From Catajapyx aquilonaris (Eukaryota): a stretch of 64,000 bases of DNA. The stretch spans positions 1 to 64,000 of the forward strand of contig KZ538648.1 in assembly GCA_000934665.2 (NCBI GenBank), in the 5' to 3' direction. Shown one piece after another: positions 1,754 to 49,933 of this stretch. Position numbers and translations under genes: made by a program. The number at the start of each line of letters is the position of its first letter. Position 1 is the first letter of the stretch. The notes beneath the pieces were generated by a model that was not told where the DNA came from, searched no databases, and saw only the letters and a program-made list of their open reading frames with translations.

Positions 1754-1969
1754 GTCATATACGAAACAAGTCGTTCATGATTTCTTTACGAGCACAACTG
1801 AGTGCGCACCACAGTTCGCGCAGCATGCAACGGTTGGCATTGCCAATGATAGTTGCCAAAATCTGCACTTGTTTCCAACCCTACGCCGAAACAAAATGGC
1901 CGACGTTTGCGACGTTGCCAATGCTCTGGAACGAGTCAGAGGCTATGGGTGTGTAGCATAGTTTTTATA

Positions 1970-3769: not shown

Positions 3770-4640
3770 AATACGACTATAACAGCTATTGAAAAGCCAT
3801 AAAAATTATTAATAAGGCTATATCAGTTATTGAAAAGTTAGAATATTTTTATCTAGTACGTCGTAACTGTTAATATAACAGATATGCCTTAAATAACTCA
3901 GGAGAGGCTGCAACGTTGCTATAACAGATACAACATTAGGTGTTGTAACAGCTATAATACTGATGTAACAGCAGTCATTAATGCTTTATAATAGTGATAA
4001 TAGGGATAATATTAATTAATTAAGAATAGTTATATTTATAACAGTTATAATATTTATAGCAGTTATGATATTTATAACAGTTGTGATATTTATAACAGTT
4101 ACGATATTTATAACAGTTGCGATATTTATAACAGTTACTATATTGATAATGGCTACAATATTTATGATAGGTACGATATTTATAACAGTTACGATATTTA
4201 TAACAGTTACGATATTTATAATAGTTACGATATTTATAATAGTTACGATATTTATAATAGTTACGATATTTATAACAGTTACGATATTTATAACAGTTAC
4301 GATATTGATAATGGTTACGATATTTATAACAGTTACGATATTGATAATGGTTACGATATTTATAATAGTTACGATATTTATAACAGTTACAATATTGATA
4401 ATGGTTACGATATTTACAACAGTTGCGATATTTATAACAGTTACGATATTTATAACTGTTGACGTGTTAATAAAACAGCTGTGCTTAAAATAACTCTGGA
4501 GAATGCAACATTGTAACAGCTAGATCAAATATGTGACTGCTGTAACAGCTATAAATGTTGCTGTAAAAGTCATTAATAAGTTATAAAAGTTATTAATGGG
4601 TGGAATATTTATTGTATAGTGATAACAGTTAACAGAACAT
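3770..4640. repeat. AT-rich degenerate satellite field with a homogeneous 18-bp minisatellite core at about 4027-4460
   Basis: Tandem GATATTTATAACAGTTAC units, more than 20 copies. Flanks are built of decayed TAACAGCTAT/TAACAGTT motifs. Confidence 0.9.
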
Positions 4641-7709: not shown

Positions 7710-7965
7710 CTAGTTCCTAATTTTGGCAACACTGCTTGGCCCACTCCCCAACTTGGACATAGTACGATAGGCCACTACCAGTTGGCGCATAGGCTCTTCC
7801 TCTGCACACTCCTGCCACTCTCAGAGAGAAATCGGTACTGCCTGCACGTTGGTGATGAGTCACTTCGCAGACAAAGTCCACCAGGGCGCTATCTTAATTG
7901 TTGAACGAGGAAAGTGAAAGCTATGGTAACTACTACCTAGGTGATGAGTCAATTTGTTTACGGTG
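7710..7965 (-). mobile_element. Non-autonomous Helitron family E, partial
   Basis: CTAG at 7710 followed by TTTTGGCAACACTGC...GCACGTTGGTGATGAGTCAC...TAATTGTTGAACGAGGAAAGTGAAA, collinear with 32493 and 48276. Confidence 0.75.
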
Positions 7966-8096
7966 GATTGTGAAAATGGCAACGCCGCACTTTTAACCGG
8001 CCGTTTAGGACTGTTGGTGACTTGGTGCAACCGGTTCGGTTTCTGACCAACTTTTTTTTCTTGTTTTAGGAACCGGGCTTAGGTGTGGTTCGTATA

Positions 8097-8098
<2 letters not shown>

Positions 8099-8159
<61 letters not shown>
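8099..8159. repeat. (TC)n microsatellite
   Basis: About 30 perfect TC units. Confidence 0.98.
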
Positions 8160-8164
<5 letters not shown>

Positions 8165-8479
8165 CTGGGTGGTCGAAGGCAAGGTAATGAAGGCGTTAAA
8201 TCAGAAGGATGGCAGGTGGAAGCGTCGAGAGCGCCCCGGGAGAGCACCACGCTTCATTCCCTTCGCCCCGAGACTTCTCTCCCCCTCTCCCCATTTGTCC
8301 TGCCTTGCCTGACGTTGGGGGTGTAAAAGGGGTGGTGGTGGAAGGATGTGGGGGTTGCGTCTCCCCCCAAAAAAGTTGGGCCAGAAATCCCCAATGAGGA
8401 ATCACCAATTTGGTCCAGGAAAATTCATACCTGCTGGTCTATAGTCGAGAAGTTGGCATCCTTGGTCGTAGGATCGAAT

Positions 8480-9520
8480 AACAGTAGCTGAAATATTTGG
8501 AGTAACTGCTACTATAATAGCAGTGAGCAACTAGCAGTTCTCGGAGTAACTGCTACTATAATAGCAGTGAGCAACTAGCAGTCCTCGGAGTAAGCTGCTA
8601 TTAAGAACAGTTAACGAATATCAGTTCTTCTATCTATAGAGTAACTGCTGTTGATAGTAGTAGTAATTGCATAGCCGTTCTTGAAGAAAACTGTTACCGA
8701 AAGCAGTTAACGAATAGCAGTTCTTCTATCTCTAGAATAACTGCTGTTAATAGTAGTAAAATCACAGCAGTTCTTGAAGCAAACTCTTACCAAAAGCAGT
8801 TAACGAATGGCAGTTCTAGTAGCTATACAGGGTGGACCAACTTCAAGTGTCGTTTTATAACGGCTATTAATAGAAGCGCTTTACGATTGACGTAGCAGCG
8901 ACGTGTAAAATGACCCACTTCGGCGCCATCGAAAATATTAGCTGCCAATTAGCTGCCCTATTGGCAGCTAATATTTTCGATGGCACCGAAGTGGGACATT
9001 TTACACGTCGCTGCTACGTCATCGCAAAATCATTGCTATTAATCGCCGTTATAAAACGACACTTGAAGTTGCTCCACCCCTCGCTCCACCCCTGTACAAT
9101 AACTTCCATTGATAGAAGTGAGATAATAGCAGTTCTTTGAACAAGATACTATTAAGAGCAGTTAACTAATAGCAGATCTTGTAGCGGTTACAGAGTAGCT
9201 GCTATTTAAAGCAGTTAGGGAATAGCAGTAATTGGAACCAGATGCCATTAAAAGCAGGTAACGCGTAGCTGTTCTCGGAGCTGTTACAGAGTAGCTGTAT
9301 TTAGAACAGCGACTATCAGTTATTGGAACAAGCTGTTATTAAGAGAAGTTAACGCTTAGCAGTTCTTGGAGGTATTACAGAGCAGCTGCTATTTAGGAAA
9401 TTTAGCGAATAGCAGTCCTTGAAACAAGCTCCTATTAAAAGCAATTAACGCTTAGAAGTTCTTGGAGCTGTTACAAAGTAGCTGCTATTTTGAACATATA
9501 GCAACTAGCAGTTCTTGGAG
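8480..9520 (+). repeat. Degenerate satellite field (AGCTGCTATTAA / AGCAGTT / CAGTTCTTGGA motifs, about 21-bp subunits)
   Basis: The motifs recur throughout. There is a near-exact 42-bp tandem duplication GGAGTAACTGCTACTATAATAGCAGTGAGCAACTAGCAGT at about 8499-8590. The field is interrupted by MITE D at 8828-9094. Confidence 0.8.
8828..9094 (+). mobile_element. Tc1/mariner-type palindromic MITE family D, copy 1 (longest)
   Basis: TA|CAGGGTGGACCAACTTCAAGTGTCGTTTTATAACGGC ... GCCGTTATAAAACGACACTTGAAGTT..CACCCCTG|TA. Almost entirely self-complementary. Confidence 0.9.
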
Positions 9521-10584
9521 CGTATATGTATAGGCTGGTTTCTGGAGGCGACAAAGACGGATGGTCGTCGTCTATGTGTGCTCCAGCGTGACAGGGATAT
9601 TTGGTATGGTGGTTGGTGGGCGTCGGAGGGTGGGGGCGTCGGAGGGTTGAAGGCGCGGTGGCATATGAGAATCACTTTGATCGGAAGCAGGGAGTCATGA
9701 ATGGATGCGATTTTCCACTCCATTGCTGCTGTAAGGGGGAGCAGAGGTTGGCGAGCAAAAGAGCCCACCAGACCCAACCAAAGAAGTCTTCTGCTGGTGG
9801 GTGGAGGGTGGGGTTGGATCCAGGGGGAGCTTACAACCCACCCACCCACCCACCCACAGCCGCAGGATCGCAAAAATTTCTGCTGACTTGTTGGGACAAA
9901 TATCTCATCATTTGCATGGAAAAGAAGAGCCCCCTCAGTATATAGCTGGGCGAGCTGAAAATGTAATTTTGGCAACACTGGTAGTCACGTGATGTCAATG
10001 GTCCAATAGCAGCACTTTCCGATTCGATGAGTGTGACCAGCCAATGCTAAATATTAAAAAATTCGGGGGCAAAAACCGTGTCTAATATTGGATTTAAAAT
10101 TTTGATGCCATCTTGGAGGAGTTGAGAATCCAATATTTTCCAAGTCAGCACCCTTTTTGCCATTGGACCGACTTTTCCTCCCCTCCTTCCCCCACCCACC
10201 CGCCCACCCACCACTCCCTGAAAGTATACTTGATTAATATTCCTACCACATTCGTTAATCGATTAGTAAGGCCTGGGAGTGGCTCCGAACAAATCAGGGC
10301 TCTGGACGGAAGAGTGATTTGGGAGCCATTTCTCCAAACTTTGAGAGATATTGTCGCAAGGAACCGGGGGAGAGGCTGGGGGGTTTGGTTGGGTGGGGTA
10401 AGGGGGAGGGGGGGTGGTAAAGGAAAGGAAAGGAAGGAAGGAAGGAAGGAAGCAGGAAAAGGAAGTTGGTGGTGGAGACAAATTAACCCAAAATTCCCGA
10501 TTGATTAAATCTGAAAGCGGTCCTGATTGAAGCACACTTTTTTTTCCTTCTTATTCAATTCGGTCCACCAGGACATGCTGGTCT

Positions 10585-11342
10585 CAATAGAAGCTACTTC
10601 GCGAGCTGCTACGCTTTCACTGCTATAAATAGCGTACTCTATAGCCACAGGAACTGCCTTTAACAGCAGCTACTTCAAACGGTTCGAAAGCGGCTATTCT
10701 TCACTGGTATAAATAGCAGTTATAATGTAGCTGCAAAACTGCTGTTTGTTAACTGCTTGTAATAGCAGTTACTCTGTCGCTACAAAAACCTGCTGTTCAT
10801 AGCAACTATGTTGTACGCTCCAAGAGCTGCTGTTTCAAGTGCCGTTTTCATCACTCATAGCTACAAGAACTGTTTTTAACAGCAGCTACTTCATACGTTT
10901 CAAGAGCTGCTTTGCTTTCACTTCTATAAATAGCAGTCACAATATAACTGCAAAACTGCTCTTTGTTAACTGCTTTTAATAACAGCTTGCTCCAAGAACT
11001 GCTATTTGTTCACTGCTTGTAATAGCAGTTACTCTGTTGCTACAAAAACTGCTGTTCATAGCAAACTACGCTGTATGCTTCAAGAGCTGCTGTTTCAAGT
11101 GCTGTTTTCACTTCATAGTTACAAGAACTGCTTTTAACTGCAGCTACTTCATACGTTTCAAGAGCTGCTGTGCTTTCACTGCTGTAAATAGCGGTTACCA
11201 TATAACTGCAAAACTGCTGTTTGTTAACTGCGTTTCATAATAACTTGCTCCAAGAACTGCTATTTGCTCGATGCTTGTAATAGCGGTTACTATACAGTAT
11301 AGCTACAAGAACTGATATTCGTTAACTGCTCTTAATAGCAGT
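10585..11342 (-). repeat. Same degenerate satellite family as 8480-9520, inverted, with a higher-order period of about 260 bp
   Basis: AAGAACTGATATTCGTTAACTGCTCTTAATAGCAG (about 11307-11341) is the reverse complement of about 8595-8629. The block starting at 10751 recurs at 11011, and the block at 10944 recurs at 11202. Confidence 0.8.
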
Positions 11343-11351
11343 TTGGTCGTG

Positions 11352-11519
11352 CAGTGTTGGTCATATATCGAGGCAACCGCCAGCGACATTATCCGAAGCG
11401 GCAGAAGAAGGAATCTTGCTCGCCCGGCTTGTACGTAATACGTATGCTTATCTTCCATTCCTTCTTCTGCCGCTTCGGAAAATGTCGCTGGCGGTTGCCT
11501 CGATATATGACCAACACTG
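11352..11519. mobile_element. Young fold-back MITE (family H), 63-bp TIRs
   Basis: Arm 11352-11414 (CAGTGTTGGTCATATATCGAGGCAACCGCC...AAGAAGGAAT) pairs with 11457-11519 with one mismatch; 42-bp spacer. Flanks are TG and TA. Confidence 0.85.
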
Positions 11520-12332
11520 TACAGTGTACACTGCCCAAGTCTACGTTTGGTGGATCGTCTAGCAAATATATTCGAAAAAGAAGGCAATAATCAGGGTGGA
11601 ATTATTAGAACAAAGCCAATCACGACCTGCGACGTCATGGCCAATCGTGGCGCTCAGGACGTGACCCTGGAATATCGATATATCGATACTTGGACAAGCG
11701 CTTCCGCCTAGCTGCTATGCTTCTTTTTTCTGCTTATTCCGGAGCTTATCTCCGGATTAAAGCTGGTTCCTTGATTCCCTGTGTGTGCGGTAATGAAAAT
11801 CCGGATTGAAGCCCAGCAATTAGGCCTATCATGGGCGACCTTGACGACTGCCGAATTTGCATTTGGCGGTGGTTTCTGCTGAAGGGAGAGTCGCAGCAAT
11901 TCTCTCTCTTTCCCCCTCCCCGCTCCTCCTTTCCCCCATCTGGGATTCAAAGAGCATCTTTCCCGCTAGCGTAATCGGCATTAAGAATGAGATTAATCCA
12001 CCGCGCTCGCTCTTATTAGCCGTGGCCCGGACTCATCCGAGAAGCAATTTCAAGCCCCGAATCCCGGAAAAGGGAAGCTGGGAATCCGGAGTTAGGTGAA
12101 GGGAAAGGGAGGAGGAGGAGGAGGAGGAAGGAAAAGCTGGGGAGCGAGAACAGGGCCCAGAAACCCGGAACGACGACGCGAGGGTCGAACCCAGGACTTC
12201 ATTTCCTCCGGGCCCGACTTGCCTTCCGGATTAATCGCCTTATAGCTATGTACCAGACAACCAAGCGAAAAGACCTGGTTTTTATCATGTACGCTAACAA
12301 CAACAACGACAGCAACAGCAGAAATGGCTGTG

Positions 12333-12495
12333 CCTCTGTTTGTCCGGGGTGAGTCATCTCAGCTCACATAGGTGGTAGTAGTGTGCAGAGAGGTAGGATG
12401 CGCCATCTGCGACAGAAATATGCAACTATGTGAACTGATGCTGTGGCGCCATCTCTGTGAGGAATATGGTACTACGTGGCGTTTTGCCAAATTCT
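12333..12495 (+). mobile_element. Helitron family E-related short copy
   Basis: CCTCTGTTTGTCCGGGGTGAGTCATC...GTAGTGTGCAGAGAGG..GATGCGCCATCT...TTTTGCCAAATT. The head is shared with 21450 and 63301. Confidence 0.65.
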
Positions 12496-14582
12496 GACTC
12501 TCCGATCACCAAATTAATATCGTTTTAGATTAATAATTGATCTAAAAATGAGGCTTCATCTCGTGCTAACTAACAATGCAGTGGGACTAAAAATGGACCC
12601 TTGATTAGCAACAGTAATTAGCCTGGTGGCGGTGCAACATTAAGAGGCATCACCATAAATAGTCCAGGCTGGTTCAACAATCGAGATCCATTGAAGTTGA
12701 CACCGGCCCTTTAATTATCAAAAATAACATCAAACCCAGTGGGTGATTGCATCTAATTGATTCATAGCCAGCCTCAAATGGTAACATTAGATCCACGCAC
12801 AAAAGTTATTTTTATACGCAATTTGTTAATTTTGCAAAAAAATTTTGCAGATAGCGATTGGAATATTTTTGGGGCCTTCCACTTTTGGGAATTGGCGAGG
12901 GGCATTCAATACTTTTAATGGAGTGGTTAATGAGCTGCAGTGTCCACACACATCCTCATTGAAAATATTGCACCAGTCCCTAACAAACATCAATGTCACT
13001 TGCAAAAAAAAAAGTGCGTTTTAAATATGTTTTTATAAACGGGACGAATATAGGGGTTGAGAGCTCTTCACACACACACAAAAAAAACTGAACACAGCTT
13101 TTTAAAACCCAAGTGTTGTTTTATGCCAGGTTTTTCATACATGTCTCTCTCTATTAGTGCATGGAAACGTGGCCTTAATTAGACTGATAGTGGCGATCCA
13201 CCCCCTAAATTATGAGCATGTGTACAGGAATAACTAGAATCTGAAACAAGCTCCATATCATTATTCGCTACGGGTTAAAAAAAAATCTGCTGGACGTTTA
13301 TCAGCCTGGGAACAAACCTCCAAAAAAAAAATCTGCTAGTTTTTTTTCCCTCCAGCAGCATTGTAAACTCGTATTTATTGCCGCGGACTCTCCCCCCCTC
13401 CCCCCCTCATTCCCCCCCTCTTTTTAGCCCGTCCATTAAGCTTTACAAGTCATGCGCACTTGAGCAAATAATTGCTTCATGAATGTTTTTCACGCTAGAA
13501 AGTAGCCTAACCGACCAAATAAGTTGCTTTCATTGTTAGCGGCAGGGGATGGTCCGCTTTTGACCGTCGCGATTTTTTTTGCGGGGTCTGATATGCAAAA
13601 AATATAATACTGTATTGTGTCAATACATAACAAGTCTAATTTAGCTGAGAAATTAACTGCAAATTAAATCACCACCATTTCTTAAAAACGGTTGATTTTT
13701 CGTCTGAATCATCTTAAATCAAATCGGGGGCATAAACGCAATTAAATCCGCCTCGACTCACATTAAAATCTGATGCACCAAATTTTGGAAGCTGTTTTGG
13801 CCCCATTCTCCATTCCCGCTTTACGATAGCCCCCACAGTAATATCTGCGCGTTGTCCTAATTACGATGCGATAATCTGATTGCAAGATTATTATTTGAGA
13901 ACCGTAGTAGTTAGACATGGCATGATAATCCGGTTTTATGGCGCAATTGCATTAGCGGTAATTCCTGTACTAACAAGCTGAGCAGTAGCGAAGTGCGAAC
14001 AAGTAAAATATGTAATTACTCCCCCCCCACGCTTTTTGCATTACGCCAACACTGGCATTGAGATGTAAATGTTCACTTCGGTCCAAACTGCCCGTTTTGT
14101 TTAATTTTTCATGATGCCATTTTTTTTCGTCCTTTCAATTAATGCATAGAGCTGTGTAGTGCACTTCAATTATTGCAAATTTTCTGTGATTTTCAGCCAT
14201 GGAGATGTCTATGATTGAATGTTTGTGCCCCCGACTCTAAAAGCCTTAAGGGAAATAGCAAACAGTTTTTAAGCCTAAAAAGAGTAATGGTTGCACTTGT
14301 ATTTGCACAGTTAGTTGATGCATTAGCCTGCTTTTTCATATAAAGTATTTATTTGCAAATATTCGAGCCTAATGGGTAAAGTGGAGGAATTGCCAAAAGG
14401 GGACCCCCGGTTTAAAAGAGTAGAGCCAAAGCTTAATGCGACATTTTGTGCCCATTTAATTATTTTATAATGTATTACTTTGCAGGTCAGTTGTTACGTC
14501 AAACGTAATTAAGCAATTGAGACTTCTGATACGTTCTACATGTCAATGCTGCAACGTCCATTAACGATGACATTTTTTGGGT

Positions 14583-14679
14583 GGTTAGGTTAGGTTAGGA
14601 TGGGTTAGGATAGGTTAGGATAGGTTAAGAGAGGTTAGTTTTGGTTTCGTTTGGTTAGAGGTGAGGTTAGGTTAGGTTA
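14583..14679 (+). repeat. Interstitial degenerate (TTAGG)n telomere-type repeat
   Basis: GGTTAGGTTAGGTTAGGATGGGTTAGGATAGG...GTTAGGTTAGGTTAG. Confidence 0.85.
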
Positions 14680-16225
14680 GAGAAACCGGCTTGAAGTCTG
14701 AACATACTGGAGACAACCAGGCCAACAAGTTTCCGTAGATGCGCATCATGGCGCAGAATCCTGAAGGTAATTCCTCTCTCACCATCCCCAGCATCCCCCT
14801 GTGGACCACCCAATTAGCTCCTGAGGCCATCTCCCTCGGGCAAGAGAGATTCATAACAGCCGCGAAACCGATTTACTGCAGCTATCCCCGCGCTTTGCTG
14901 CCTCATTCCGGGCTTGTTGGAATAGGGTGTATTTATCGCAAGTGTTGTGAAGATGGGTTATATGCAATGGAAGGGGGGGGGGGTAGTACTACAGGGGGGT
15001 GAGAAATAAATCATTCCTGTTTTGTAATATTTCGATAACGGGTTGGGGTTGGGGGCAACCGCGCTCACTGAAGCGATAAATCACAAGGAAGGGAGAGGCT
15101 ATGGGGGTATATTCCTCGTCAATAAAACCCTGCCAACGAGGCCTTCCTTGGATTACTTTTTATGTAGTTGTAAAAGCGTGGCATTATTTCATGCAAATAA
15201 ACACCCGGGAAAAAGCAATTTATCACAGTCTTCCTCTCCCCTATACCCAAAACCTTCCAATCTCGGTTAGTTGAGTCCGAGTTGGTGCAAAAGCGGATCG
15301 TCATCGTCGCAATTTGTTAGAAGCAAATGAAAGATAATTTTCGGCGGAGAGAATGATTGCGGAGGCGCCCACGCAAAAAAAAAAATGTGGAAGGGAGGAA
15401 TTTGCTGGATGAAAAATGTGGCAACGTTGCCCTTTGAGGGTACCAGACGATTTGTGTGTTTAAAGAGACGCACTCTGGCCAATTGCATTTTTTTCCACAA
15501 AATAAAGACAGTGAAATTTATGGTAATGAGAGCCACGTTTTGTGCATTACGATTAATTAATCTGAAGGAATATCACTCTCAGTAATTAGCACAATTATGA
15601 CGTTTTAGGATGCCCAGTTGTATAGCCTTCAATGTTTTGACGGGAAACACTGCTGCAATTAATACGTGCACGTGGTCATTGCGGCATTGCATGTTTGTTA
15701 ATTTGGTATGATAATGGCAGCAAAACTGTTAACACGAGTTGTCACTAATAACGATATAATTGCGCAACTTGCACCATAAATTAAACGCTCTTGTTAGTAG
15801 TACGTCCAGTTGTTTTGCTTGGAAACAAACAAGTGGATACAACCTACGACACTTCCATCGTCGTTTAAATGAAATAATTTTGCAAGTGCATCCGATTGCC
15901 CTTGGCACGTACCAGTAGTTGATGAGAACTAATGATATTCCACCGAGATGAAAGTTGGGTTAGCAGGTTGCGTCGATGGGGAGTGACAGGTGGATACCAC
16001 TTTTCAGTCGGTGTTCGACAGGCGTAACGGAAGCTGCATGGCGCCGGACAAATGCCACTCTCTCCATGTGTCTACCCCCCAAAATAGCCCCACGGTGGCA
16101 GTTAGATCTGTTTCCACTCATACTCCACTAAACACACATCCCCATACGCACAATATCCGATCCATATACAGCATCAATATCTGGCTAGAGTTCTCTGAAT
16201 CGACTTTTTCTCATTAAAAAAGGGT

Positions 16226-16436
16226 CTTATACGAATAGAACGGCTGTCCGTCCGTCTGTGGACATGTATCAGGGCCTACACCGCAATAGTTATTATGTTA
16301 AGGTCGAGTCTACATGATTTAGAATTTTTTTAAAGGTTACTTGGCAACAATAAATAAGACTAACAACATTCTATGCCATTGTTGTCTGAATTTCATTGGC
16401 AATGAGAAAAAAAGTCTACTCGAATCACGCTTTGCA
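16226..16436 (+). mobile_element. DINE-1/Helentron-associated-like element, second copy
   Basis: TAGAACGGCTGTCCGTCCGTCTGTGGACATGTATCAGGGCCTA head and GGCAATGAGAAAAAAAGTCTACTCGAATCAC tail match 1970-2285; the middle differs. Confidence 0.6.
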
Positions 16437-18099
16437 AATCTTATTTACATGTTAATGTTTCAATTTTGCCCCCCAATTTTATAGTAGAGGTCAAATGAAC
16501 CTCCGAGCAAATTAAAATCTCTAGGGCTAATCCAAGAGCCCCACTGATGAAAACCTGCCCCCAAACTTTTTATCTCCGATAGCATGTGCAGGAGAGATTG
16601 ATGCCAGCGAGAACTTTTTTTCCTCTCTCTTTTTTATATTCCACGTGCAGACGGATTAGAGAAGAAGTCAATCTAAGTCACACGTCTCTCACACCTATCT
16701 AAAGAAATGAATTAGGGGTGACAAACTCTGTCCGGGTCCTTCTCCCAGTTCCAGATGACGTCTTCATCTCGGTTGAAAAGGGGTCTCTCTCTCTCTCTCT
16801 TTCTTAAGACACCTCCACGTACTTCCGGAATTTTTTTTCCGCCCAAAAATTTTTAGTAGAGAGAGAGAAAAAAATGTCCTGAGGGAGGGTAGTAAGAGAA
16901 GAGCACTCCCATTTGGGTTCTGTGATTGAATCATCCGACTTTTGTGGCTTTCCACCCGACTTCTTCTCCCCCCCCTGCTTCCTTCTCATTTGTGGAATTA
17001 GGCGGCTTTTGCCTCTTCTGCCAACATGCAGATTGAAGTGCCGAGAGAGGGAAAGGGAAAGGCCTCATCAAAATGATGAAGGCTTGTCCATGCGATGAAA
17101 AGAACCCTGGTTGCTTGAAGAAGAAGAAGAAGAAGACGCCCTGAAAGAAAAAAAAAACTGACGAATCGCAGGAGCCGAGAAGCATTTACTCGGAATGTCA
17201 ATATCTAAATACGTACTCTGGCGGGTCGAAAAGAGGATCCGTGACAAGAAGAGAGAAAAAGGTGGAGCTTTCTCCTCCTCCTTTCACATCCAAACCACCC
17301 CACTTTTTTTTAAACCCCTTCCCCAAACCTTGCCATCTTCAATATCCCCACAGGTCCAATCTGCCCCCACCAAAAGTGGAACCTTTCGCTGCAAAATCGG
17401 GCATCAAATCAAGTTTACAACCCCCCTTTTTTTCACGCCTTCTCCCTGAGCTGAATCCGACGAAAATTCCGTCCCAAGGAGAAACGCCATATCTTCTGGC
17501 TTCGGAGATAGGTCGTTTATCCTTGGGACCGGAATTTTTTGTCTGATTTCGTCGGTTTTTATAGATAGGGCAGATGGTGCCTATTAGACTATTAGCCCTA
17601 TTAGCCCTATTAGCGAACAATGTAACAGGCCCAGTAACTCATTCTCTCGTTTAAGAAGAAGAAGAAAAAGATGGAGAAAGAAGCTTGAAAGGTCAGGGCG
17701 GGTTGTGGGCAAGCAGTGACTGGTCTCCAGCATTCCGAGGGGGGCAAACCAAAACAAATGGCTTTTAATATGGGCCCAGAAAATTCCTGGATACGACTCC
17801 GGACGACGGTCTTTTCCGGGGCCCAGGGAAAGAGGGAGAGAGAGAGAAAAAGACATTGCCTTTTTTTCCTCCCCGTTTGCTCTTAAAAGGAGAAGGAAAA
17901 GGAAAAAGAAGAGGAAAAGAAGTAAAGGAAAAAAAGGTCTTTCCCCGCGGGTGATATTTTGCTGCAAGGGACATCTGGTCTCTTGCGAGGACCTTTTATA
18001 CTCGACCCGGATAAAAAAAAGGGGGAAGAATACGGAGCCAGTAATGCCAACCTGACCAGAATATCGAAACTCACTTGCTAATTGATTCTTTTCATCGAA

Positions 18100-18465
18100 T
18101 GTATAGTTAGTATTGTCTCTGTAAAAAAAAAAATCGAGAGAAAACTTCACTTATTTTTTGAGCGAATGTCACCTTGTAAAAATTTACTTTCACTCAAATC
18201 CAGTGGAAAAACAGCTATTAGGTATGTCTAAAAAAAATCGAGCAAAACATTAGCTCAAAAAATGAGAAATTCCGCCAAATGATATTTTTGAGTGAATTTC
18301 ACTCTGCAAAGATTTGCTTTAACTCAAATTGAGTGGAAAAACAGCTATTATTATCTCTAAAAACATTCGAGCAAAACATTCACTCAAAAAAATGAGAAAT
18401 TTCGCCAAATGCTACGTTTGAATTAATTTCACTCTGCAAACTCAAATTGAGTGGAAAAGCACTCG
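18100..18465. repeat. Tandem repeat, unit about 130 bp, roughly 2.5-3 copies
   Basis: GTGGAAAAACAGCTATTA at 18203 and 18333. TCGAGCAAAACATT..CTCAAAAAATGAGAAAT..CGCCAAATG repeats with the same spacing. Confidence 0.8.
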
Positions 18466-19374
18466 AATTTAAAAAAAGAGTGTACCAAGATTGTATAATT
18501 AGGAGCATTAAAAATTCAAGTGTTTGCTCTACTTTACAATGTTCATGACCTGGTTTTCACTCTAGATTTTCGCAAACGACATTAGCGCCAATGACAAATG
18601 AGGGGGCAGGTTAGTAGTGTCGTAACTGGAGGAAGATTGATCAACCCTGAACTATTTATATACCCGGAATACTATCAGGGAATAATACAGGGTGGCACAA
18701 CAATACATAACACTGTTTAGAAATGAAGGTCTTGGGAGAGAAACATGTTAACCGACTATGTTTTTTCTCCCGATTCTATTGAGCTGACAGAAAAAAATAT
18801 GTCTGAACAGTCACGAGATCTGAAGCGAAACCATAAATTCAGTTTGGCACGATAAAATCCTACCGCAATTTTTCCCTTATTGCGAATTTTCCTCGCTTGA
18901 TCCTCTTTTGTAATTGGAATACGAACAGGATTTTTTCCTTATAAGATAATGGACAGGTAGTTGAATTCGCATCAATCGCTAAAAAAAATTAGAGCGTTGA
19001 GTGTTTTTTTTTTTGCTGAATCACATACAAAAAAAAATCTGCAAGCAAAGCTCTGCAGTCTCATTCCGCATCACCGCAGCGTCCAGGTGCGGTCTGGTCC
19101 TTTTAATTTATTTCGGATTAGCTCGTATCTGTTTCTGAACGATTTGGACCCACAAAATCCCCTCCTCCACCCCCCTTTTCCCCTATCCCGTAACATTTCT
19201 CCTAAAAGTTTAGATATTATTTCTTGGCCAGAAGCTATCAACAAAAGTGGCGAAAAGTTTCCGAACTTATTTTTTTTAGCTGGTGACTAATGGCTCTCTT
19301 GGTGATGTCATGTAGACATTACAGAAACGCGGATAAAGTGTAGCAATTAAAATAACTACTCATCAATAAAAGTA

Positions 19375-19770
19375 GATGAATTTTTAACGAACGAGTGCGC
19401 ACCACAGTTCGCGCACCGTGTAGGGTTGGAATTAATAATAATAATAATTTGTACCCCGTGCCATAGGCCCTCTTAGGGGGGTGGGATACCACCACATTTT
19501 TTTCTGGAACTCTTACTTTCGTTTTTACTTCTCTTATATGGGGATGGGATAGGGACGAAAGGAAGCGGCTGTGGCCTATAATTACGGACACAACCCCGGA
19601 ATTTTCCTGGTGAGACCATGGAAAACCACAGGGTCGGCGGCCCCCGGGATTCGAACCCAGGACCTCCCGATTAGCAGTCGGATACCATATCCCCTCCGCT
19701 ACCACTGCTTCGGTTGTAGGGTTGGAATTATCAATGATCGTGGTTACTGCCCTTATTTCCAACGCTACTC
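19375..19770 (+). mobile_element. MITE family A copy hosting SINE copy 1
   Basis: TA|GATGAATTTTTAACGAACGAGTGCGCACCACAGTTCGCGCAC, then the SINE, then family A resumes with TCAATGAT...CTTATTTCCAACGCTAC. Confidence 0.85.
19435..19714 (-). mobile_element. tRNA-derived SINE, copy 1 (full length), perfect 16-bp TSD
   Basis: Minus strand has A-box-like TAGCGGAGGGG, anticodon-like stem-loop TCCGA-CTGCTAA-TCGGG, B-box GGTTCGAATCC, a body shared with copy 2, and an (ATT)n tail. TSD TGTAGGGTTGGAATTA at 19419-19434 and 19715-19730. Confidence 0.92.
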
Positions 19771-20872
19771 TTAAAGTGGCAGTATAGTTTGCACCTTTAA
19801 TTGCCCGTGTCTTCTTTTTTTTTCTCACGTCGTTTTGGGCAACAGCCACTTAAGAGGACACCCTCCCAAGAGTGGTCTCCTGGAAAATTCTCAGACCTCA
19901 AGCTTTACCCCTGCATCTCACGCACACTTTCTTCTTCTTCCACATCCCCCACCCCCTTTCTTCCACCCCCACCCACCAGACACTCCAACCCATCCCATTG
20001 CAATAAAAATCCGAGTCGAGAGCTGCGGTGCGGAAAACACAAACATCCGATCTAATTAAATAGTTCCAACGCCTGGAGAGGGGGAGGTCTAGAGATGGAG
20101 GAGGAGAGAAAAAAAAGAGAACGTAATCTCCTTTTTTCAAAGAGTTCCAGATATAAAAAAAGAGAGGAAAGAAGAGTGGTACAACTGAAAAACGAAACAC
20201 AAGCCGAAAAAAGGAATTGGCCAGTAAGGAATATGCTTGGGTTTTCTTCTGATACTTCCCCCGCATATTTCTTTTTTTAAATACTCGTGGGACGAATTGG
20301 ATCTTCGTTTCGGGTTTTTTTTTGGGTGCATTTGCCAAATAGAAATAACTCCTATGCGCAATTCGGATGGAATTGCACTTTTTTTTATAAAAAAAATTAC
20401 TGGCGTGTAATTTTCTGTAATGGACGACCTTGTGTTTTGGGTGGGAAATAAATTCGATACAAATTCACTGCCTAATATTTACAAAGTTGTAAATATTAGG
20501 CAGTGAATTTGTATGGCTTATTAGTTCTAATAAGCCATACGTTGCTACAAAATAAGCTCAATTTGATATTACTGCTACAGTGTTGTAAGTATGTAGTAAA
20601 ATTTGGCCACCACTTTCGACAGCTGCTTTCAGCTCCCATTTGACTCGGACAAAAATAATGTCGCGTCAGTAGTTGGATAGATTTCGACGTAAGAAGATGG
20701 GGGCCAAGACGTGTACTGCATACATTGCCATTGCCACGTAAGTTATGATAATTACACATGCTTCATTGTTGGCAAAAGTTCCTGCATGTTCAGACAGTAA
20801 TACTTTAGAGCAGCACTTTAGCGACCGAAATTATGCAAGTCCGGTCCAACAATTCGAAGGGGGGGGGGGGGG

Positions 20873-21096
20873 NNNNNNNNNNNNNNNNNNNNNNNNNNNN
20901 NNNNNNNNNNNNNNNNNNNNNNNNNNNNNNNNNNNNNNNNNNNNNNNNNNNNNNNNNNNNNNNNNNNNNNNNNNNNNNNNNNNNNNNNNNNNNNNNNNNN
21001 NNNNNNNNNNNNNNNNNNNNNNNNNNNNNNNNNNNNNNNNNNNNNNNNNNNNNNNNNNNNNNNNNNNNNNNNNNNNNNNNNNNNNNNNNNNNNNNN
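20873..21096. other. Assembly gap (N run) flanked by poly-G
   Basis: Run of N with G homopolymers on both sides. Confidence 1.
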
Positions 21097-21449
21097 GGGG
21101 GGGGGGGGGTTAGAAGTAAGGGAGATGGGGGAGGGGGGCAAAAGAATGTGTCGGGGGATTCTTTAGTGCGGTGTTGGTGCCCCCGGACTCAAACTCTACC
21201 CTTTTCCGCACCTTGTTAAGTTTCAGGAGTACCTTCAGATTGAGAACATGGGCATTCCCTTTCCCTCCCCTAGTTTTGCCAGAAAGAAAAAAGAAGGGTT
21301 AAAGTGGAGAAAGGGGAAGGAGGAAGAGAATAACAGGCCACGAGATGAATCTCATATTTTTTCTTTGGAAGCCATCTTTGCTGGGGGCTCCTCCATTTCC
21401 ACTTTCAAGTGCCCCTGTGTCCGTTTATGTACAGGGTGTGTCCGAGGGT

Positions 21450-21550
21450 TCCTCTGTTTGTCCGGGGTGAGTCATCATCAGGTGCACGACCCTGAGAGTG
21501 GCAGTGTACGTCATCTATGATCATGTCACTTACGACAGTAGGCGCCACGA
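21450..21550 (+). mobile_element. Helitron family E-related short copy
   Basis: TCCTCTGTTTGTCCGGGGTGAGTCATCATCAGGTGCAC..GAGAGTGGCAGTG, matching 12333 and 63301. Confidence 0.6.
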
Positions 21551-21844
21551 CTTTAACCCTGGTAAGCTTGTCCGACTTAATGAAACACCCTGTGCACTAC
21601 CACCCTCTTCCTCCTTCCCCTACTTCCTTAGTGCAAATAGTAGGGGTGGAGGAGAAGGGGGAAGAAGAAGCCTCTTCAAAATGGAGGGAACATGAAAACT
21701 GCATTATACAATCCAAGACAATGCTCTTAGGCCCCCGAATGAGTTATCGCCCTCACAAAGCTCAAGATGTTAACGCGTATGCAGGCTTGGAGAAGGTAAC
21801 CATGGTGTTATGCAAAAAAAAAGAAGTCAAGGCCTCTATATTAA

Positions 21845-22050
21845 TTTTTTTAAATGGGCGCAACCGAGTGCGCAACACAGTTCGCGCAAATTGTTTCCAA
21901 CATTAAGCTAGAGGGTGTTACAATATGGCGGAATTTTTCGACGTTGCCAAGGCACTGAGGCTACCATGAGAAGTAAGCGTTGTCGGAACAATGGGCTTGC
22001 GCGAATGTGGGTGCGCACTCGGTTGCGTTCGTTACAAAAAAAAAATCATA
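21845..22050 (+). mobile_element. MITE family A, short subfamily (A2), both TIRs present
   Basis: GCGCAACCGAGTGCGCAACACAGTTCGCGCA ... TGCGCGAATGTGGGTGCGCACTCGGTTGCGT. The interior is collinear with 57947-58146 and lacks the GGTTGGAATTA segment. Confidence 0.85.
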
Positions 22051-23595
22051 TGTAGTAACAAGGAGAATCACATCATGTAATCCTGTAATACTGAAATAAT
22101 TTTGTCTGTTGAATTAAAATGCACTGTACTGCTTCACTTGAAAGGCCTGCTGTCATTGAGCGATATGAAGTACTGGAATGTACAGTACTTGTTTTTTTCA
22201 GTTTCCCTCGCTTCCGATAATAACATTCTTTGCCAATTTTTCGCAACAAGTACACTGTACAACCTTGGCGCAATCATCCTCCAATATTGTTACAGTTGAT
22301 AGCCTATATGTCCACTATAATTGTGTTTAAAATTCCACGCCAATTTTGGCAAAAATAAATCAGCGCAATGCAAACCCAATTGTGACTTTGGCCACATCCG
22401 AATATCTCATCCCCTCGAAAATAAGGTATACCCCGGAATATGTTTGCTGCCTTTTCCACCCTCACAAAGGGATTCACCAGGATCGAGAGGCTTGAGCGCA
22501 TGAAGATGAAGTTTTTTGCATTGAGATAAGTTTATTACCTCCCCCCCCCCCNCCCCCCCTTATACTATGCGGGTATAAGCCTCGATGCACTTCTGCATAT
22601 AGCTCCAAACCTTTCTTGTATTATTATTGCCCGCTCAGTATTTCCAACTCCGGTTTTTTTATATACTTTTTTCGAGGAGAGTCCCCCTCCCAACTTTTTT
22701 CCACCCACTCCCCCCCTTTTAGAAAAATGACATACATTCTGATCATACGGATTACAGCCTGTGTAAGAGCACAATAAATTATGCGGCCGTAATAAAATCG
22801 GACGTTTTTCGTGCTTCTTTTCTGGACTGTGACGGTACGCGCCATTGGTTCTGAAAGTTCCTCTTCCCCCACCCCTCCCACCCTCACCTCCATCTTCTTA
22901 TATATATATAACTGCATGCAGCACCTTGGAGGGCCCGAAATTCATTTTGTTATACCTGGAAAAAAAAAAAAGAATTATTGTCTGTCGAGAGACACTTTTT
23001 TTTTCTCTCCCTATATTCGCCTTTAAAAAAGGGCGTAGTTAAAATGAGCCAAGTGTAAGAAGAGATAAATTTTTGCAGCCAGAAATTGTATCTGGAGCAA
23101 GTGATAACTGGGAATATCGTCCTCCGGATTCGGGGGGAGGGGGTGTAATGATTATGTGTCACTTTTAGTCGGTTCGTTGAAAGCTGGGCGAGAGAGTTGC
23201 TCTCGGGATGATACAAAAGGGGCTGCGCACTGACAGGCGTCAAAAAAGTTCGAAAGTTGTCGGTTTTTGGACAGTGCTTCTGATACATTGTTGCTTTCAG
23301 TAGTAAATTTTAAGAAGAGTAACAATAATGCCAAAGGCTCAAAGTGTGCCAGAAAATTAGAAATTGAGATTCTGCTTTCAAAATGCTTTATATGTGCCAT
23401 GCTTAGTCACGTGCAGGATGCTCAAAGTGCCTGCCTGGTACTGAAGGTATCCCACAGATGGCTCCGGCTATATGTGCGCATGGTCTTCCCATTTAAAATA
23501 AACTCAATTATCTTCCTTCACAAATTTTTAGCACTTTGAGCCTTTGTCATTTCCACTCTTGTATCATTTATTTGTTTATTTATTTATTTATTGTA

Positions 23596-23915
23596 TCATT
23601 GATAATTCCAACAGTGCACCGAAGCAGTGGTGGCGGAGGGGATATGGTGTCCGACTGCTAATCCTGGATTCGAATCCCGGTGCCGGCAACTCTAACCGTG
23701 GTTTTCTGTGGTTTCCCACGGTTCCTCCAGGAGAATTCCGGAGTTGTTCCCTAAGCTAATAGGCCACAGCCGCCTCCTTCCTTCCCTATCCTATCCCAAA
23801 AAGCGCAGTAAAAACGAAACGAAGAGTTCCAGTCACAAAAATCCCCCCTAAAGAGCCGCCGGCTGATAACAGGGTATGAATTATTATAATTCCAACCGTG
23901 CATGCTGCGCGAACT
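23596..23915 (-). mobile_element. MITE family A fragment hosting SINE copy 2
   Basis: Flanks TCATTGATAATTCCAAC... and ...CCAACCGTGCATGCTGCGCGAACT are the reverse complement of family A AGTTCGCGCAGCATGCACGGTTGGAATTATCAATGA. Confidence 0.8.
23618..23886 (+). mobile_element. tRNA-derived SINE, copy 2, 16-bp TSD with one mismatch
   Basis: ACCGAAGCAGTGGTGGCGGAGGGGATATGGTGTCCGACTGCTAATC[8-nt deletion]CTGGATTCGAATCCCGG, body ...AGGCCACAGCCGCCTCCTTCC..., tail AATTATTA. TSD TAATTCCAAC(A/C)GTGCA at 23603-23618 and 23887-23902. Confidence 0.9.
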
Positions 23916-23921
23916 CATCTA

Positions 23922-24086
23922 TGTACGGTTGGAACTATCAATGATAGTTAGTAAGATCTCTGAATAGTGGCACTTATTTCCAACGCTACTGTTTTGGAAT
24001 GAAAACAAAATGACCGACCTTTGTGACGTTGTGGGATGCGCGAGTGTGGGTGCGCACTCGGTTGAGCTCGTAAAAAAATTCATCTA
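23922..24086 (+). mobile_element. MITE family A, right portion with right TIR
   Basis: TGTACGGTTGGAACTATCAATGATAG...CACTTATTTCCAACGCTAC...GTGCGCACTCGGTTGAGCTCGTAAAAAAATTCATC|TA. Confidence 0.85.
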
Positions 24087-25255: not shown

Positions 25256-28164
25256 TGTTGCAAAAAAAACAGGTTGTTTAAAAAAAGATCCCTGCAACAC
25301 TTGAGCTATGTTTATTCAGTCCGGTCGGTATACAAAATGGCCAGAAACCTCGATTTTGCATCCGGATTTTCTGTGGCTTTGTAGAAAACGGTTTTCTTTT
25401 TTGCAAATATTTGTTTGGACGATTTTTACAACCGAATATGATCCCTTCCCAAAAGAGCTGGCTTTTGTGTGGAATCCTCTGGTCGCTTGACAAAACCTTG
25501 GGGAAGAGGTCAATTCCCAATTCCGTCGCCTTTCGTGTGAGGACGACTCCAGAAGCTTGCTGTCCAATTTTTCCCAAAGGGAAGAAAGTGGGGTGTCCTG
25601 TACAAAACCCTGGACCCTGCACACGATTCCATTCCTTCCACTAAGCCCTAAGCCTTCCACTGGAAAACGAGCTAGCCTTACCTTATACCTGCTGTCCCCC
25701 CCATAATGCCTTTGCTTTCCTACATCACAAAAGCCCAATTTAGACTGAGGGATTTGAGCCAAAAAAAAGGAAAAGGGCGACAGAATGTACCAATTGGCCA
25801 TGGAATATTTTGATCCAAATTCATGACCTTTTCCTGAATTTTGGGCAGGGTGGTCCAAACGTTGGCTCATTAAATCTCTCTTCCCAACTATCCCTCCCTT
25901 GTTTATGCAGGGCATTCATTTCAGAAGAGAGAGAGAGAGGGCCTTTGTTTTCCCCTTCCCAGCCTCTCTCCCCCATACCTTTGTGTGTAGCCCCATCCTT
26001 CCCGGAGAACACGTAATTTCTCGCCAGGCCAACTGGTAACGGGCGTTTTCCATGCGAGAGCTTTGGACGGATCCCGAATTAATTGCTTGTTCCTCCTATT
26101 AAGAAAAGTCTGCCAGGGGGACTGGATCTTCCGGCAGGGGATTATGTGCACCCAATCGTGGGGATTTCAAAAATGTGTTGAGTGGGTATATATAAGGGGA
26201 AGTACCGGAAAAAAGCGGACCAAATCTAATATCATTACATACTGTATATGTTTGTCCGGGCTACCTAACACACTTCCACAATTCTGAGAGCGCTTTGCAC
26301 ACAGATGGCAAACCTGCCGGTGAATGAGGGAAAAGTACGTAAACTGCACTTTTTTAAAGTCTAAATACAAAAAATTTAGGATTTTGGTGTATGTGGGAGG
26401 GAGGTTGTTCTGGTAGTTCCGGTGTACGCCACGGATGGCGGTAGCTGGCAGGGCCTAATCGGAGGCTATGGCTTCCGGGTATGCATCATAGATGGCGTGG
26501 CTGAAATGGCGTAGTAAGTTTGAAAAGTCCCAAAAACGCAATTTTAGGACAAGGTGTAGGACAATTTCCAGATGCTGTAGGTGCACCAGATGACATACTC
26601 ATGTGACACATAACCATCACTCCCGTGAACCCGCAGCATTGACATATCTTGTCTAAGTGAATATGCATATTTTATGAACGTCTTTCATTTACTCAATAAC
26701 TTCATCAATATTCCATTGCGAAGAATAGGTACCCTGCTAGTTATACGTATATAAAGCAGAAGGTTTGTATGTTCCACCTGTCTAACCCACTTTCAGACTA
26801 CTGAGAGTTCTGAGACTTGGCACACGTGCCTTTGATATAGGGAAAAGTCCGAAAATTACACATTTTTATTGTCTAAATATTCAAAATATGCTATTTTCTA
26901 ACTCCTTTCTAGATACACACATAACAGACATGATAATATTATGCAACATATTATTTTTTTCGACCCTAATTTTTATCACCAACTACATTCCATTTCCGTG
27001 GCCTACAACTAGTTGCAAAGTCGTTTGCAGCACTCTCCAGTTGAAAAATGAATCCAGTCCCATTTGGAGCTCCGAGTATACTGATGATCATTGTGTTTGA
27101 GAGAAATGAGACTAATGGGCAGTAGATCTTTTGCCCTCCCGTCTCTCTCTCTCTCCCCCCCTATACCCTCCCTTTTTAGATAGGCGTCGCTGGCGTCGAG
27201 CCCGATACACACCGGGGGCCCCCCCTTTCTCGTTCCGCTGTGCTTATTCCAGCGTCACGCCAGGTACAACAAGGAATCTCAATTCGTCGTGGAATTAGGT
27301 GGTTAGCACGGGTTATGGATGGGTCTCCTGGGAGTTTGGACCCCCCTGCAAAAGCCGAGGGCACGATGGGGGTTAAAGGGTCACGCCTGATGGCACTTGC
27401 CTTTACTTTGCTGGATGTATCTATCACACTGCCAAACAATAGATCAAAAAGCCAATTATAAACTTTGTACCAATTCCTCTCATTATGCTAGGGTTTTAAC
27501 ACCTTTTTTTTCTGGGGGTCCTTCACGTTCGTTGACTTGCAAGAAACAAAACAGATGCCTAATTTGCCTAACAAGGGCTGTTGATCCCGCTTCTTTTTCT
27601 CCCCCCTTCACCACTTGTCGTCAGCCCCATTTTGTCAACACACGAAACCCAACGAGGCGCCTCATTTCCAGATCATTCAGGAGAAAAGCCAAACATGGCT
27701 TGTTTTCATCTGCCGCTGAAGGGAGAAAATACCCGGGGTTTTAAAACACGTTTCCCCGTGAACCATCAGTATAAGAAACTTTTTTCTTCTCCACTTGCCA
27801 TAACCTTCCAGCTTTCTTTTCCTTCTTTCTTTTCCTTCTTTCCTCCCCTCTTGGTGAGAAAAAACTTTTTGATGCGACCTGAAATTAGAAAAGTTGGCCG
27901 AATCCGCATAATTGAAAATTTCCATGCGTCACTGACAGAGTGGCTTAAGACCGGCGTCCTCCTCTGGATAATTTACGTTCCAGGGAAGCAATCCCACCTT
28001 GTGGGCTTGCAGTGCTTTGGGAGGATGGGGAGAAAGGGGGGGGAGTTGGACTAACGGATTCTTCTCTGATTAAACTTGTTGTAATGAATTTACAAGGGGG
28101 CAGCGAGCGGCTTGGAGGGAAAAACGAATTAAATACAAGATATTGTCATAACTGTTATTGCTCG

Positions 28165-28504
28165 CTGCTACTTACCTAGCCGAACCTAACCTAATCTAAC
28201 CTAATCTGACCTAATCTAATGGTTAGGTCTGGTTAGGTTAGATTAGGTAGCGGACGTGAAAAATATCCTCGTCATGGTTAGGTCTGGTTAGGTTAGATTA
28301 GGTAGCGGACGTGAAAAATGTCCTCGTCATGGTTAGGTCTGGTTAGGTTAGGTTAGATTAGGTTAGATTAGGTCAGCCTAATCTAACCTAATTAAGGTTA
28401 GATTAGGTTCGATAGGCTGACCTAATCTAACATAATCTAACCTAATCTAACCTAATCTAACCTAACCTAACCTAACCATGACGAGGATATTTTTCACATC
28501 CGCT
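28165..28504. repeat. Fold-back structure of TTAGG/TTAGA telomere-like repeats bounded by unique TIRs
   Basis: AGCGGACGTGAAAAATATCCTCGTCATGGTTAGG (28249 and 28304) versus CCTAACCATGACGAGGATATTTTTCACATCCGCT (ends 28504). A 55-bp tandem period is seen at 28219/28274/28329. Confidence 0.85.
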
Positions 28505-30550: not shown

Positions 30551-30612
30551 TTGCGCAGCTTGGCACGGTTGGAATTATCAACAAAATGGCGGACGTTTGC
30601 GACGTTGCCACT
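30551..30612 (+). mobile_element. MITE family A internal fragment with an empty SINE target site
   Basis: GCGCAGCTTGGCACGGTTGGAATTATCAACAAAATGGCGGACGTTTGCGACGTTGCCA. Confidence 0.7.
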
Positions 30613-32492: not shown

Positions 32493-33043
32493 CTAGTAGC
32501 GGATTTGTTACCAAATTTTGGCAACACTGCTTGCCCCACCCTCTAACATGGACGTAGTACGATAGGCCCCTACCAGTTGGCGCATAGGCGCTTCCTCTGC
32601 ACATGCACACTGGCACAGGCACGTTGGTGATGAGTCACCCTGCGGACAAAGCCCACCAGCACCGTGTCTCGCCTGCATTGAAGTGAGTACCACCCTCATT
32701 GACCACTACATGTCCTCTAATTGTTGAACGAGGAAAGTGAAAACGATAATGGTTATTGCTACCTATAGGCGACTAGTTGTTTATGACCGGACAAACCTGT
32801 GGACAGCGAGAACAAGGGGATTAGGTATACAGGGTGGTCCAAGTTCAAGTGTCGTTTTATAACGGCGATTAATAGAAGCGCTTAACGATGACGTAGCAGC
32901 GACGTGTAAAATCGCCCACTTCGATTGCGCCGAAGATGCGCCGAAGTGGGACATTTTACGCGTCGCTGCTACGTCATCGCAAAATCACAGCTATTAATCG
33001 CCGTTATAAAACGACACTTGAACTTGGACCACCCTGATATCGA
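32493..33043 (-). mobile_element. Non-autonomous Helitron family E, near full length, with MITE D at its 5' end
   Basis: 3' CTAG|T at 32493-32496, with hairpin TGTTACCAAA-TT-TTGGCAACA about 10 nt inside. The 5' region GGACAGCGAGAACAAGGGGATTAGGTATA matches 48827-48855. The exact 5' end is uncertain. Confidence 0.75.
32830..33036 (+). mobile_element. MITE family D, copy 2
   Basis: TA|CAGGGTGGTCCAAGTTCAAGTGTCGTTTTATAACGGCGATTAATAG ... CTATTAATCGCCGTTATAAAACGACACTTGAACTTGGACCACCCTG. Perfect terminal inverted arms; the right flank reads AT. Confidence 0.92.
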
Positions 33044-49851: not shown

Positions 49852-49933
49852 NNNNNNNNNNNNNNNNNNNNNNNNNNNNNNNNNNNNNNNNNNNNNNNNN
49901 NNNNNNNNNNNNNNNNNNNNNNNNNNNNNNNNN
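49852..49933. other. Assembly gap (N run) adjoining poly-C
   Basis: Run of N. Confidence 1.

Follow-up and report, generated by a model that had tools for sequence, protein, structure and literature searches.

Evidence for two independent SINE insertions at the same base of a mariner-type MITE family in Catajapyx aquilonaris

The 64-kb stretch of Catajapyx aquilonaris DNA analysed here (contig KZ538648.1, positions 1-64,000, assembly GCA_000934665.2; hereafter the window) is non-coding eukaryotic DNA with many small repeats. It carries two copies of a short interspersed element (SINE), both of which interrupt members of one family of miniature inverted-repeat transposable elements (MITE family A) at the same base. 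This locus raises the question whether the SINE is specialised on the MITE, whether a single composite of SINE and MITE was copied, or whether separate insertions met at a preferred site. The reading that we favour, with a probability of roughly 55%, is that two diverged members of a SINE superfamily were inserted in separate events mediated by a long interspersed element (LINE) at the same base of two diverged MITE copies. On this reading, the target site is a hot spot that the integration machinery recognises by sequence, and not the sole home of the SINE family; two independent insertions at such a site are well supported.

Each SINE copy was compared with the window by BLAST, which returned the two copies and no others. 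Copy 1 lies at 19435-19714 on the minus strand (280 bp) and consists of a transfer RNA (tRNA)-like head and a core domain, followed by a 3' hairpin and a tail of (ATT)n; copy 2 lies at 23619-23886 on the plus strand (268 bp) and ends with a short ATTATTA tail. The consensus of the A and B boxes (TRGYNNARNNG and RGTTCRANTCC) was taken as quoted in the accessible part of PMC9191728. Both boxes are exact in copy 1 (A at position 14, B at position 58), and in copy 2 box A, at position 13, is exact as well and box B shows one mismatch; the copies carry the internal RNA polymerase III promoter of a tRNA-derived SINE (SINE2 type). Copy 1, and only this copy, came near the threshold of the Rfam tRNA model, with 28 bits for a gathering score of 29 (E = 0.0086), and ARAGORN called no tRNA. 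As in other SINE2 elements, the copies are short and non-coding, end with a simple repeat and are bordered by target-site duplications (TSDs), and the contig depth and varied 5' flanks described below show many dispersed copies in the genome. The core of both contains GGCCACAGCCGC, and in both a hairpin is predicted directly before the 3' terminus GGGTAYRAATTATTA, which is followed by the (ATT)n tail. The alignment of the two copies has 201 identical positions in 249 ungapped columns and 50 gapped columns, in runs of up to 13. The terminus GGGTAYRAATTATTA, found nowhere else in the window, was kept by both copies despite a divergence of ~19-24% elsewhere. A TTTT run is also present inside the core GTGGTTTTC of both copies, at 19523-19526 and 23702-23705 (SINE positions 90 and 84), and from its sequence it would act as a weak internal RNA polymerase III terminator.

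The host element has terminal inverted repeats (TIRs) of ~45 bp, of which 11 cores are present in the window, and TA stands directly outside the outer ends that can be read (9/9). From the TIRs and the flanking TA, family A is therefore a Tc1/mariner-type (Stowaway-like) MITE; it also lacks coding capacity and occurs in multiple copies, and the reads include copies that are empty. Directly internal to the left TIR, family A has the sequence ...TTCGCGCA-GCA-TGCACGGTTGGAATTA|TCAATGA.... At locus 1, the left TIR (core GAACGAGTGCGCA) and the TIR-proximal arm occupy 19375-19418 on the plus strand, with TA before them at 19373-19374. Beyond the insertion, the MITE resumes at 19731-19783 (plus strand) with TCAATGA and then the conserved block CTTATTTCCAACGCTAC; it has no right TIR, and the read depth drops to the single-copy level from 19784 on. 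At locus 2, the MITE remnants lie on the minus strand. The remnant next to the head of SINE copy 2 is TCATTGA (23596-23602), with a (TTTA)n-like microsatellite upstream, and that next to its tail is TGCTGCGCGAAC and then TCATCTA (23903-23921), which belong to a TIR-proximal arm with ~33 bp of the TIR missing. A second family A copy follows at 23922-24084 on the plus strand, head-to-head with the SINE-bearing remnant; it has no left TIR and ends with a right TIR and then TA. Locus 2 as a whole (23596-24084) contains TCATTGATAATTCCAACCGTGCA ... TGTACGGTTGGAACTATCAATGA, an imperfect palindrome with a spacer of 19 bp, composed of the remnant and the inverted family A copy; a foldback duplication or the nesting of two copies could have produced this arrangement.

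Read in the orientation of the SINE, both loci have the order TCATTGA | TAATTCCAAC-N6 [SINE-(ATT)n] TAATTCCAAC-N6, then nnn-TGCGCGAAC. Because of this shared order, both SINEs are antisense to the TIR-proximal arm of the MITE. The TSD of copy 1, TGTAGGGTTGGAATTA (TAATTCCAACCCTACA on the SINE strand), lies on the tail (3') side at 19419-19434 (minus) and is identical (16/16) on the head (5') side at 19715-19730, also minus. For copy 2, both on the plus strand, TAATTCCAACAGTGCA on the head side (23603-23618) and TAATTCCAACCGTGCA on the tail side (23887-23902) agree at 15/16 positions. An earlier reading made from the sequence only had described two SINE copies antisense at the same base of family A with 16-bp TSDs; we confirmed each of these points by direct observation, with coordinates displaced by ~2 bases. 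Read evidence was taken from the contigs of four public runs (X1-X4), all from one sample, placed on 19280-19880 with at least 80% likeness. Both junctions of locus 1 were matched by independent contigs of these runs, at 19280-19461/2 and at 19689-19880, with 0-2 differences, and are therefore not an assembly artefact.

Was the pair of SINEs then produced by one insertion event or by two? The sequence-only reading had proposed two independent insertions into already diverged MITE copies, with TSDs that match within a locus and differ between loci, and the TSD covariation test supports this well. The halves of each TSD agree (0 and 1 mismatch, that is 1 mismatch in 2 x 16 positions), and the loci differ from each other at positions 12 and 14. 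Under a simple model of independent sites, a single origin has P = 2.9e-5 to 6.9e-5 when the pairwise divergence is set between 0.10 and 0.24. The TSD of locus 1 has the private changes of that MITE copy, CCTACA then CGG against CGTGCA then TGC in the family, and these changes run on into the 3 bases outside the TSD. Apart from the SINE and the TSDs, the only sequence common to the loci within ~2 kb in each direction is 13 and 8 bp of MITE. The similarity is confined to 19406-19738 against 23915-23595, which contradicts the local inverted duplication of a larger segment that had been raised as another origin for the two loci. Because the TSDs covary, the MITE changes are private, no further flank is shared and neither locus forms a composite that could be mobilised (locus 1 being without a right TIR and locus 2 keeping only 7 and 19 bp of MITE), the independence of the two insertions is well supported.

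The same evidence bears on the proposal that one ancestral SINE and MITE composite was spread by a transposase, by local duplication or by break-repair copying, the shared position being due to descent. Such a history would account, with no further assumption, for the agreement of the loci in site, orientation and TSD length. It would also fit with the local duplication of family A, whose conserved block has ~5 copies in the window against ~30 equivalents in the reads, with the tandem pair of family A arms at 1548-2000, and with two loci that lie 4 kb apart and inverted. However, the same two parallel changes would have to arise in both halves of the TSD, and the TSD pairs would have to stay near-perfect while the SINEs diverged by 19-24% (P ~3e-5 to 7e-5); neither locus is a transposable unit, and nothing outside 19406-19738 is common to the loci. 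An ancestral composite is thus already strongly disfavoured, and we consider it very improbable. A read-through transcript carrying MITE flanks was ruled out, since its inherited inner 16-bp repeats could not covary with the locus, and the TSD covariation test also ruled out that the empty sites go back to an ancestral composite from which the SINE was deleted between the 16-bp repeats.

The 17-mer of the target, TCATTGATAATTCCAAC, occurs eight times in the window with at most 3 mismatches, compared to 0.24 expected from shuffles. One occurrence is the tail/TSD junction of locus 1, which leaves seven target sites. Two of these seven, the perfect 17-mers only, are occupied, and five sites with 1-3 mismatches are empty: 154-170 (plus strand, 1 mismatch), 1597-1613 and 1833-1849 (minus strand, 3 mismatches each, in the first and the second, respectively, of two MITE arms in tandem), 23928-23944 (TCATTGATAGTTCCAAC, within the second family A copy of locus 2) and 30568-30584 (minus strand, 2 mismatches, in a MITE fragment). 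The empty or variant sites noted earlier from the sequence are thus real, and the one at 1833-1849 is additional to them. A random choice of two of the seven sites would hit just the perfect pair with P = 1/21, and with uniform placement a second insertion would fall on one of the seven sites in the same orientation with P ~5e-5.

These numbers also bear on coincidence as an explanation, in which AT-rich DNA would be nicked generically, the MITE, itself GC-rich, would offer ATTGATAATT as its sole patch of this kind, and an open region would have received two insertions by chance. Most 5' flanks of the SINE in the reads are indeed AT-rich, and the TSD length may come from a fixed nick spacing and not from sequence. 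The window, however, has thousands of AT-rich patches, for which the uniform expectation is the ~5e-5 given above; the insertions agree to the same base, within 1 nt, on both strands; and the single-mismatch sites are empty. We therefore regard coincidence, too, as very improbable.

Two further observations concern the structure of family A in the window. Between 1548 and 2658, two left arms of the family stand in tandem (1548-1782 and 1783-2000), with a matching right TIR only at ~2600-2651; this looks like a longer relative, of ~1.1 kb, with an internal tandem duplication. The conserved block CTTATTTCCAACGCTAC amounts to ~30 single-copy equivalents in the reads (bin 19742-19762), with ~5 copies in the 64-kb window, and family A looks low-copy but clustered.

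Is the SINE family specialised on the MITE? In X1, the summed contig depth, to be read in orders of magnitude, was 22.4 in the single-copy flank, with peaks of 803,020 in the tRNA head and 260,463 in the core. It was 6,009-18,541 in the SINE 3' region and 35,370 in the last SINE bin (19700-19720), and fell to 323-664 in the adjoining MITE bins (19721-19783). In the contigs of the four runs, the SINE modules exceed the MITE arm in abundance by a factor of ~10^2 to 10^3, and their summed depth is 10^2 to 10^4.5 times that of single-copy flanks. In three runs, 32-39 contigs per run showed the SINE 5' end running into varied AT-rich DNA and not into TGnnnGGTTGGAATTA. The superfamily that shares the SINE head is thus dispersed, because its modules far exceed the MITE arm and its 5' flanks vary. 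At this level, most SINE copies have flanks unrelated to family A, and the specialisation on family A suggested by the sequence-only reading is not supported. The share of copies at the same target can be set beside the value of more than 20% that is used as a criterion in the accessible part of PMC4494074: it is 2/2 for the window copies, and below that value for the head-sharing superfamily in the reads.

The reads also contain the MITE without the SINE. At least 13 joints skip 303-331 bases across the SINE, in at least 26, 28, 25 and 27 contigs of X1, X2, X3 and X4, respectively. The contigs of the skipping joints represent empty MITE sites elsewhere in the genome and are the source of most of the MITE-arm depth. 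There are 17 further joints beside the 13 listed, and the listed X1 joints sum to a depth of 518. Among the listed X1 joint contigs, 11 end precisely at 19434, which is the final base of the TSD. Contig end points were not used as a sign of near-identical paralogous junctions, because Logan contigs are simplified graphs. The depth of X4 is 0 at 19784-19880, from which nothing was concluded. Taken with the depths above, at most a handful of superfamily copies can adjoin the family A arm.

There could nevertheless be, inside this dispersed superfamily, a dedicated site-specific SINE lineage with the terminus GGGTAYRAATT(ATT)n, most copies of which would lie at the MITE site and whose LINE, of Tx1, R1 or another type, would be equally strict. 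Both window copies (2/2) are at the site and the perfect 17-mers alone are occupied, and the 3' terminus is common to the two copies in spite of their divergence. This terminus looks rare: the depth at 19460-19462 is 345-462 per run, ~12-17x the single-copy flank, compared to 6,219-10,072 at 19465, three bases further in. The drop at 19463-19464 may however reflect alignment clipping or contig ends. Beyond the listed joints, ~260 X1 depth units lie over the right TSD and TCAATGA (19721-19741). This surplus could correspond to further occupied sites, but the 17 further joints could supply it as well. The published crocodilian SINEU-3, with 90% of its copies in one mariner family according to the accessible part of PMC4494074, gives the idea a precedent. 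On the other side, the head-sharing superfamily is clearly dispersed, no LINE is seen in the window and no further occupied site is directly seen. A small site-specific lineage, with perhaps a third of ~30-45 sites occupied, would be compatible with the data; we consider a lineage that is dedicated in the strict sense doubtful.

Insertion at a hot spot, the reading that we prefer, can be described in three steps. The endonuclease of a putative partner LINE would nick the bottom strand at 5'-GGTTGGAATTA^TCAATGA-3'. The (AUU)n-tailed SINE RNA, with its short hairpin before the tail, would then be copied from the nicked 3' end by target-primed reverse transcription. A cut of the top strand 16 bases off, after ...CA, would give rise to the 16-bp duplication.

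Several points weigh against this preferred reading. Microhomology between tail and primer was rejected as the cause of site choice, the primer end ...AATTA pairing with only ~2 bases of the (AUU)n tail; since this is too short, site choice most likely reflects recognition by the endonuclease of the presumed partner LINE, and by Pfam no reverse transcriptase, endonuclease, transposase or LINE was present among the 241 open reading frames (ORFs) of the window. The copies number only two, and the window was picked on their account; the perfect 17-mer at both occupied sites may just mark one MITE subfamily. Locus 2 has been rearranged since the insertion, because only 7 and 19 bp of MITE adjoin its TSDs. 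The summed depths are, by the caveat of their source, orders of magnitude and not copy numbers, and the flank evidence from the reads concerns the 5' side of other genomic SINE copies. Finally, at SINE positions 12-17 the contigs with loose ends are unlike either window copy, and by their sequence they may represent a sister subfamily with another partner.

The insertion preference of a SINE for a site in a transposon is already described in crocodilians and is not a new principle. According to the accessible part of Kojima 2015 (PMC4494074), SINEU families are inserted into the mariner-type Mariner-N4_AMi, which holds 90% (313/347) of the SINEU-3 copies, 23% of SINEU-1 and 13% of SINEU-2. As described there, these insertions lie near one position of Mariner-N4_AMi, opposite in direction and with an expected TSD of 16 bp, and the partner Tx1-Mar LINEs have the same preference. 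The Catajapyx copies resemble this system in the repeated independent insertion of a SINE at one position of a non-autonomous mariner-type element, in the opposite direction and with a 16-bp TSD. They come from what is probably an arthropod host, judging by the (TTAGG)n arrays of the window, and differ in their tail of (ATT)n and in a tRNA-like head that carries A and B boxes, in contrast to the heads derived from U1/U2 small nuclear RNA (snRNA) and the poly(A) tails reported for SINEU; moreover, SINEU has a partner LINE and known copy shares in that source, whereas no partner LINE was seen for the SINE studied here, of which the window has only two copies. The sequence-only reading had called a SINE on a MITE unusual, a view that is weakened by the SINEU/Tx1-Mar precedent. 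Our search of the open-access literature on site-specific SINEs and on SINE-MITE target preference turned up no tRNA-derived or invertebrate case. A literature search by short sequence motifs retrieved unrelated papers only.

Other systems share single traits with the Catajapyx copies, as far as the accessible parts of the respective sources describe them. Tx1L of Xenopus laevis inserts into Tx1D (Christensen et al. 2000, via PMC4494074), and has in common with our case a target sequence inside a non-autonomous DNA transposon; Tx1L is however an autonomous LINE with a piggyBac-type target, whereas here a SINE only and a TA-flanked target are found. SINEs with microsatellite-like 3' tails are mobilised by LINEs of the RTE clade (Nishiyama and Ohshima 2018, PMC6007223), whose signature is a TSD that starts with T ~10 bases downstream of a T stretch, together with a 3' end that the SINE has in common with an RTE LINE. 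The insect SINEs Sbg1-9 of Blattella have short tandem repeat tails and TSDs of 10-15 bp, and random integration was reported for them (PMC9191728). The present copies are similar to both groups in their tRNA-like head, in a short tandem repeat in place of poly(A) and in a TSD within 10-16 bp that begins with T. They differ in their site-defined insertion, the groups compared showing, in the same sources, no sequence specificity or only a T stretch ~10 bases upstream. Both loci have T as the first base of the TSD, and a T-rich stretch upstream is present at locus 2 only, not at locus 1. By analogy, the combination of a repeat tail and a hairpin would be typical of 'stringent' SINE/LINE pairs such as the RTE-mobilised SINEs (PMC6007223). 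Transposons are listed among the targets of site-specific elements of the class without long terminal repeats (non-LTR elements; PMC4640811). With R1, R2 and TRAS/SART, as presented in that source, the Catajapyx site has in common what appear to be fixed nicks on both strands, a constant TSD and a multicopy 'safe' target. Those elements are autonomous and reside in ribosomal DNA, telomeric repeats or snRNA genes, and in contrast to them exclusivity is not seen here.

What these insertions mean depends on how strong the preference is. In its fullest form, the proposal would be of a small arthropod lineage of tRNA-derived SINEs, with a stringent-type hairpin and (ATT)n, and of a putative LINE specific for the 17-bp TCATTGA|TAATTCCAAC of a low-copy, clustered mariner-type MITE, ~1/3 of whose sites would be occupied; this can be put forward only tentatively. 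If a site-specific lineage does exist, it would be a second, independent origin of the transposon-in-transposon targeting of the SINEU/Tx1-Mar type, and the first case in which the head is of tRNA type and the tail is not poly(A). Should the preference be both real and strong, the locus would offer a compact natural example of a retroelement landing in a selfish element and not in genes, and would extend the crocodilian phenomenon of snRNA-headed SINEs to tRNA-derived SINEs of an invertebrate; with a defined 17-bp target from which single-base variants apparently escape, the specificity of the LINE endonuclease would be directly testable. If the preference is weak, the locus would be an ordinary nested-repeat locus and a clean worked example of how TSD covariation separates independent insertions from an amplified composite.

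Further searches concerned the remainder of the window and other collections. None of the 241 ORFs of the window (40 of at least 130 amino acids and 201 of 75-129) scored above the Pfam cut-offs, and four sub-threshold Pfam hits (Rsm22, DUF3915, Atrophin-1 and DUF4408) were disregarded. Rfam gave 0 matches in the window at gathering thresholds; at relaxed thresholds, the near-threshold tRNA hit and low-scoring noise of microRNA-like hairpins appeared, and nothing else. Scans of viral and prokaryote genome collections for the SINE gave 0 matches. A metagenome scan with a gapped SINE-specific pattern returned 4 loci, which were rejected as chance matches because all lie on GC-rich, bacterial-looking contigs and have no BLAST similarity to the SINE.

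The window contains other repeats as well. Another MITE-like family, starting with TATACAGGGTGGTCCAAGTTCAAGTG, is present at 8824-9081, 32826-33036 and 41642-41852, with long inverted arms that are 86-98% complementary. A palindromic repeat family occurs at two distant places (616-776 and 55570-55823), with arms of 56-69 nt and 92-94% complementarity. Long spurious ORFs on both strands arise from a tandem array at 3924-4571, whose ~25 or more units repeat with a period of 18 bp. The assembly gaps at 20858-21110 and 49852-49945 comprise 224 and 82 N, the first with poly-G on both sides, and single N bases elsewhere in the window sit in homopolymers, so that the assembly may have broken on account of homopolymers. 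Interstitial arrays of (TTAGG)n/(CCTAA)n, which we take to be the arthropod telomeric repeat motif and which hint at the taxon of the host, are found at 14563-14672, 28157-28504, 59528-59632 and 63908-64000, some of them as inverted pairs inside repeat units.

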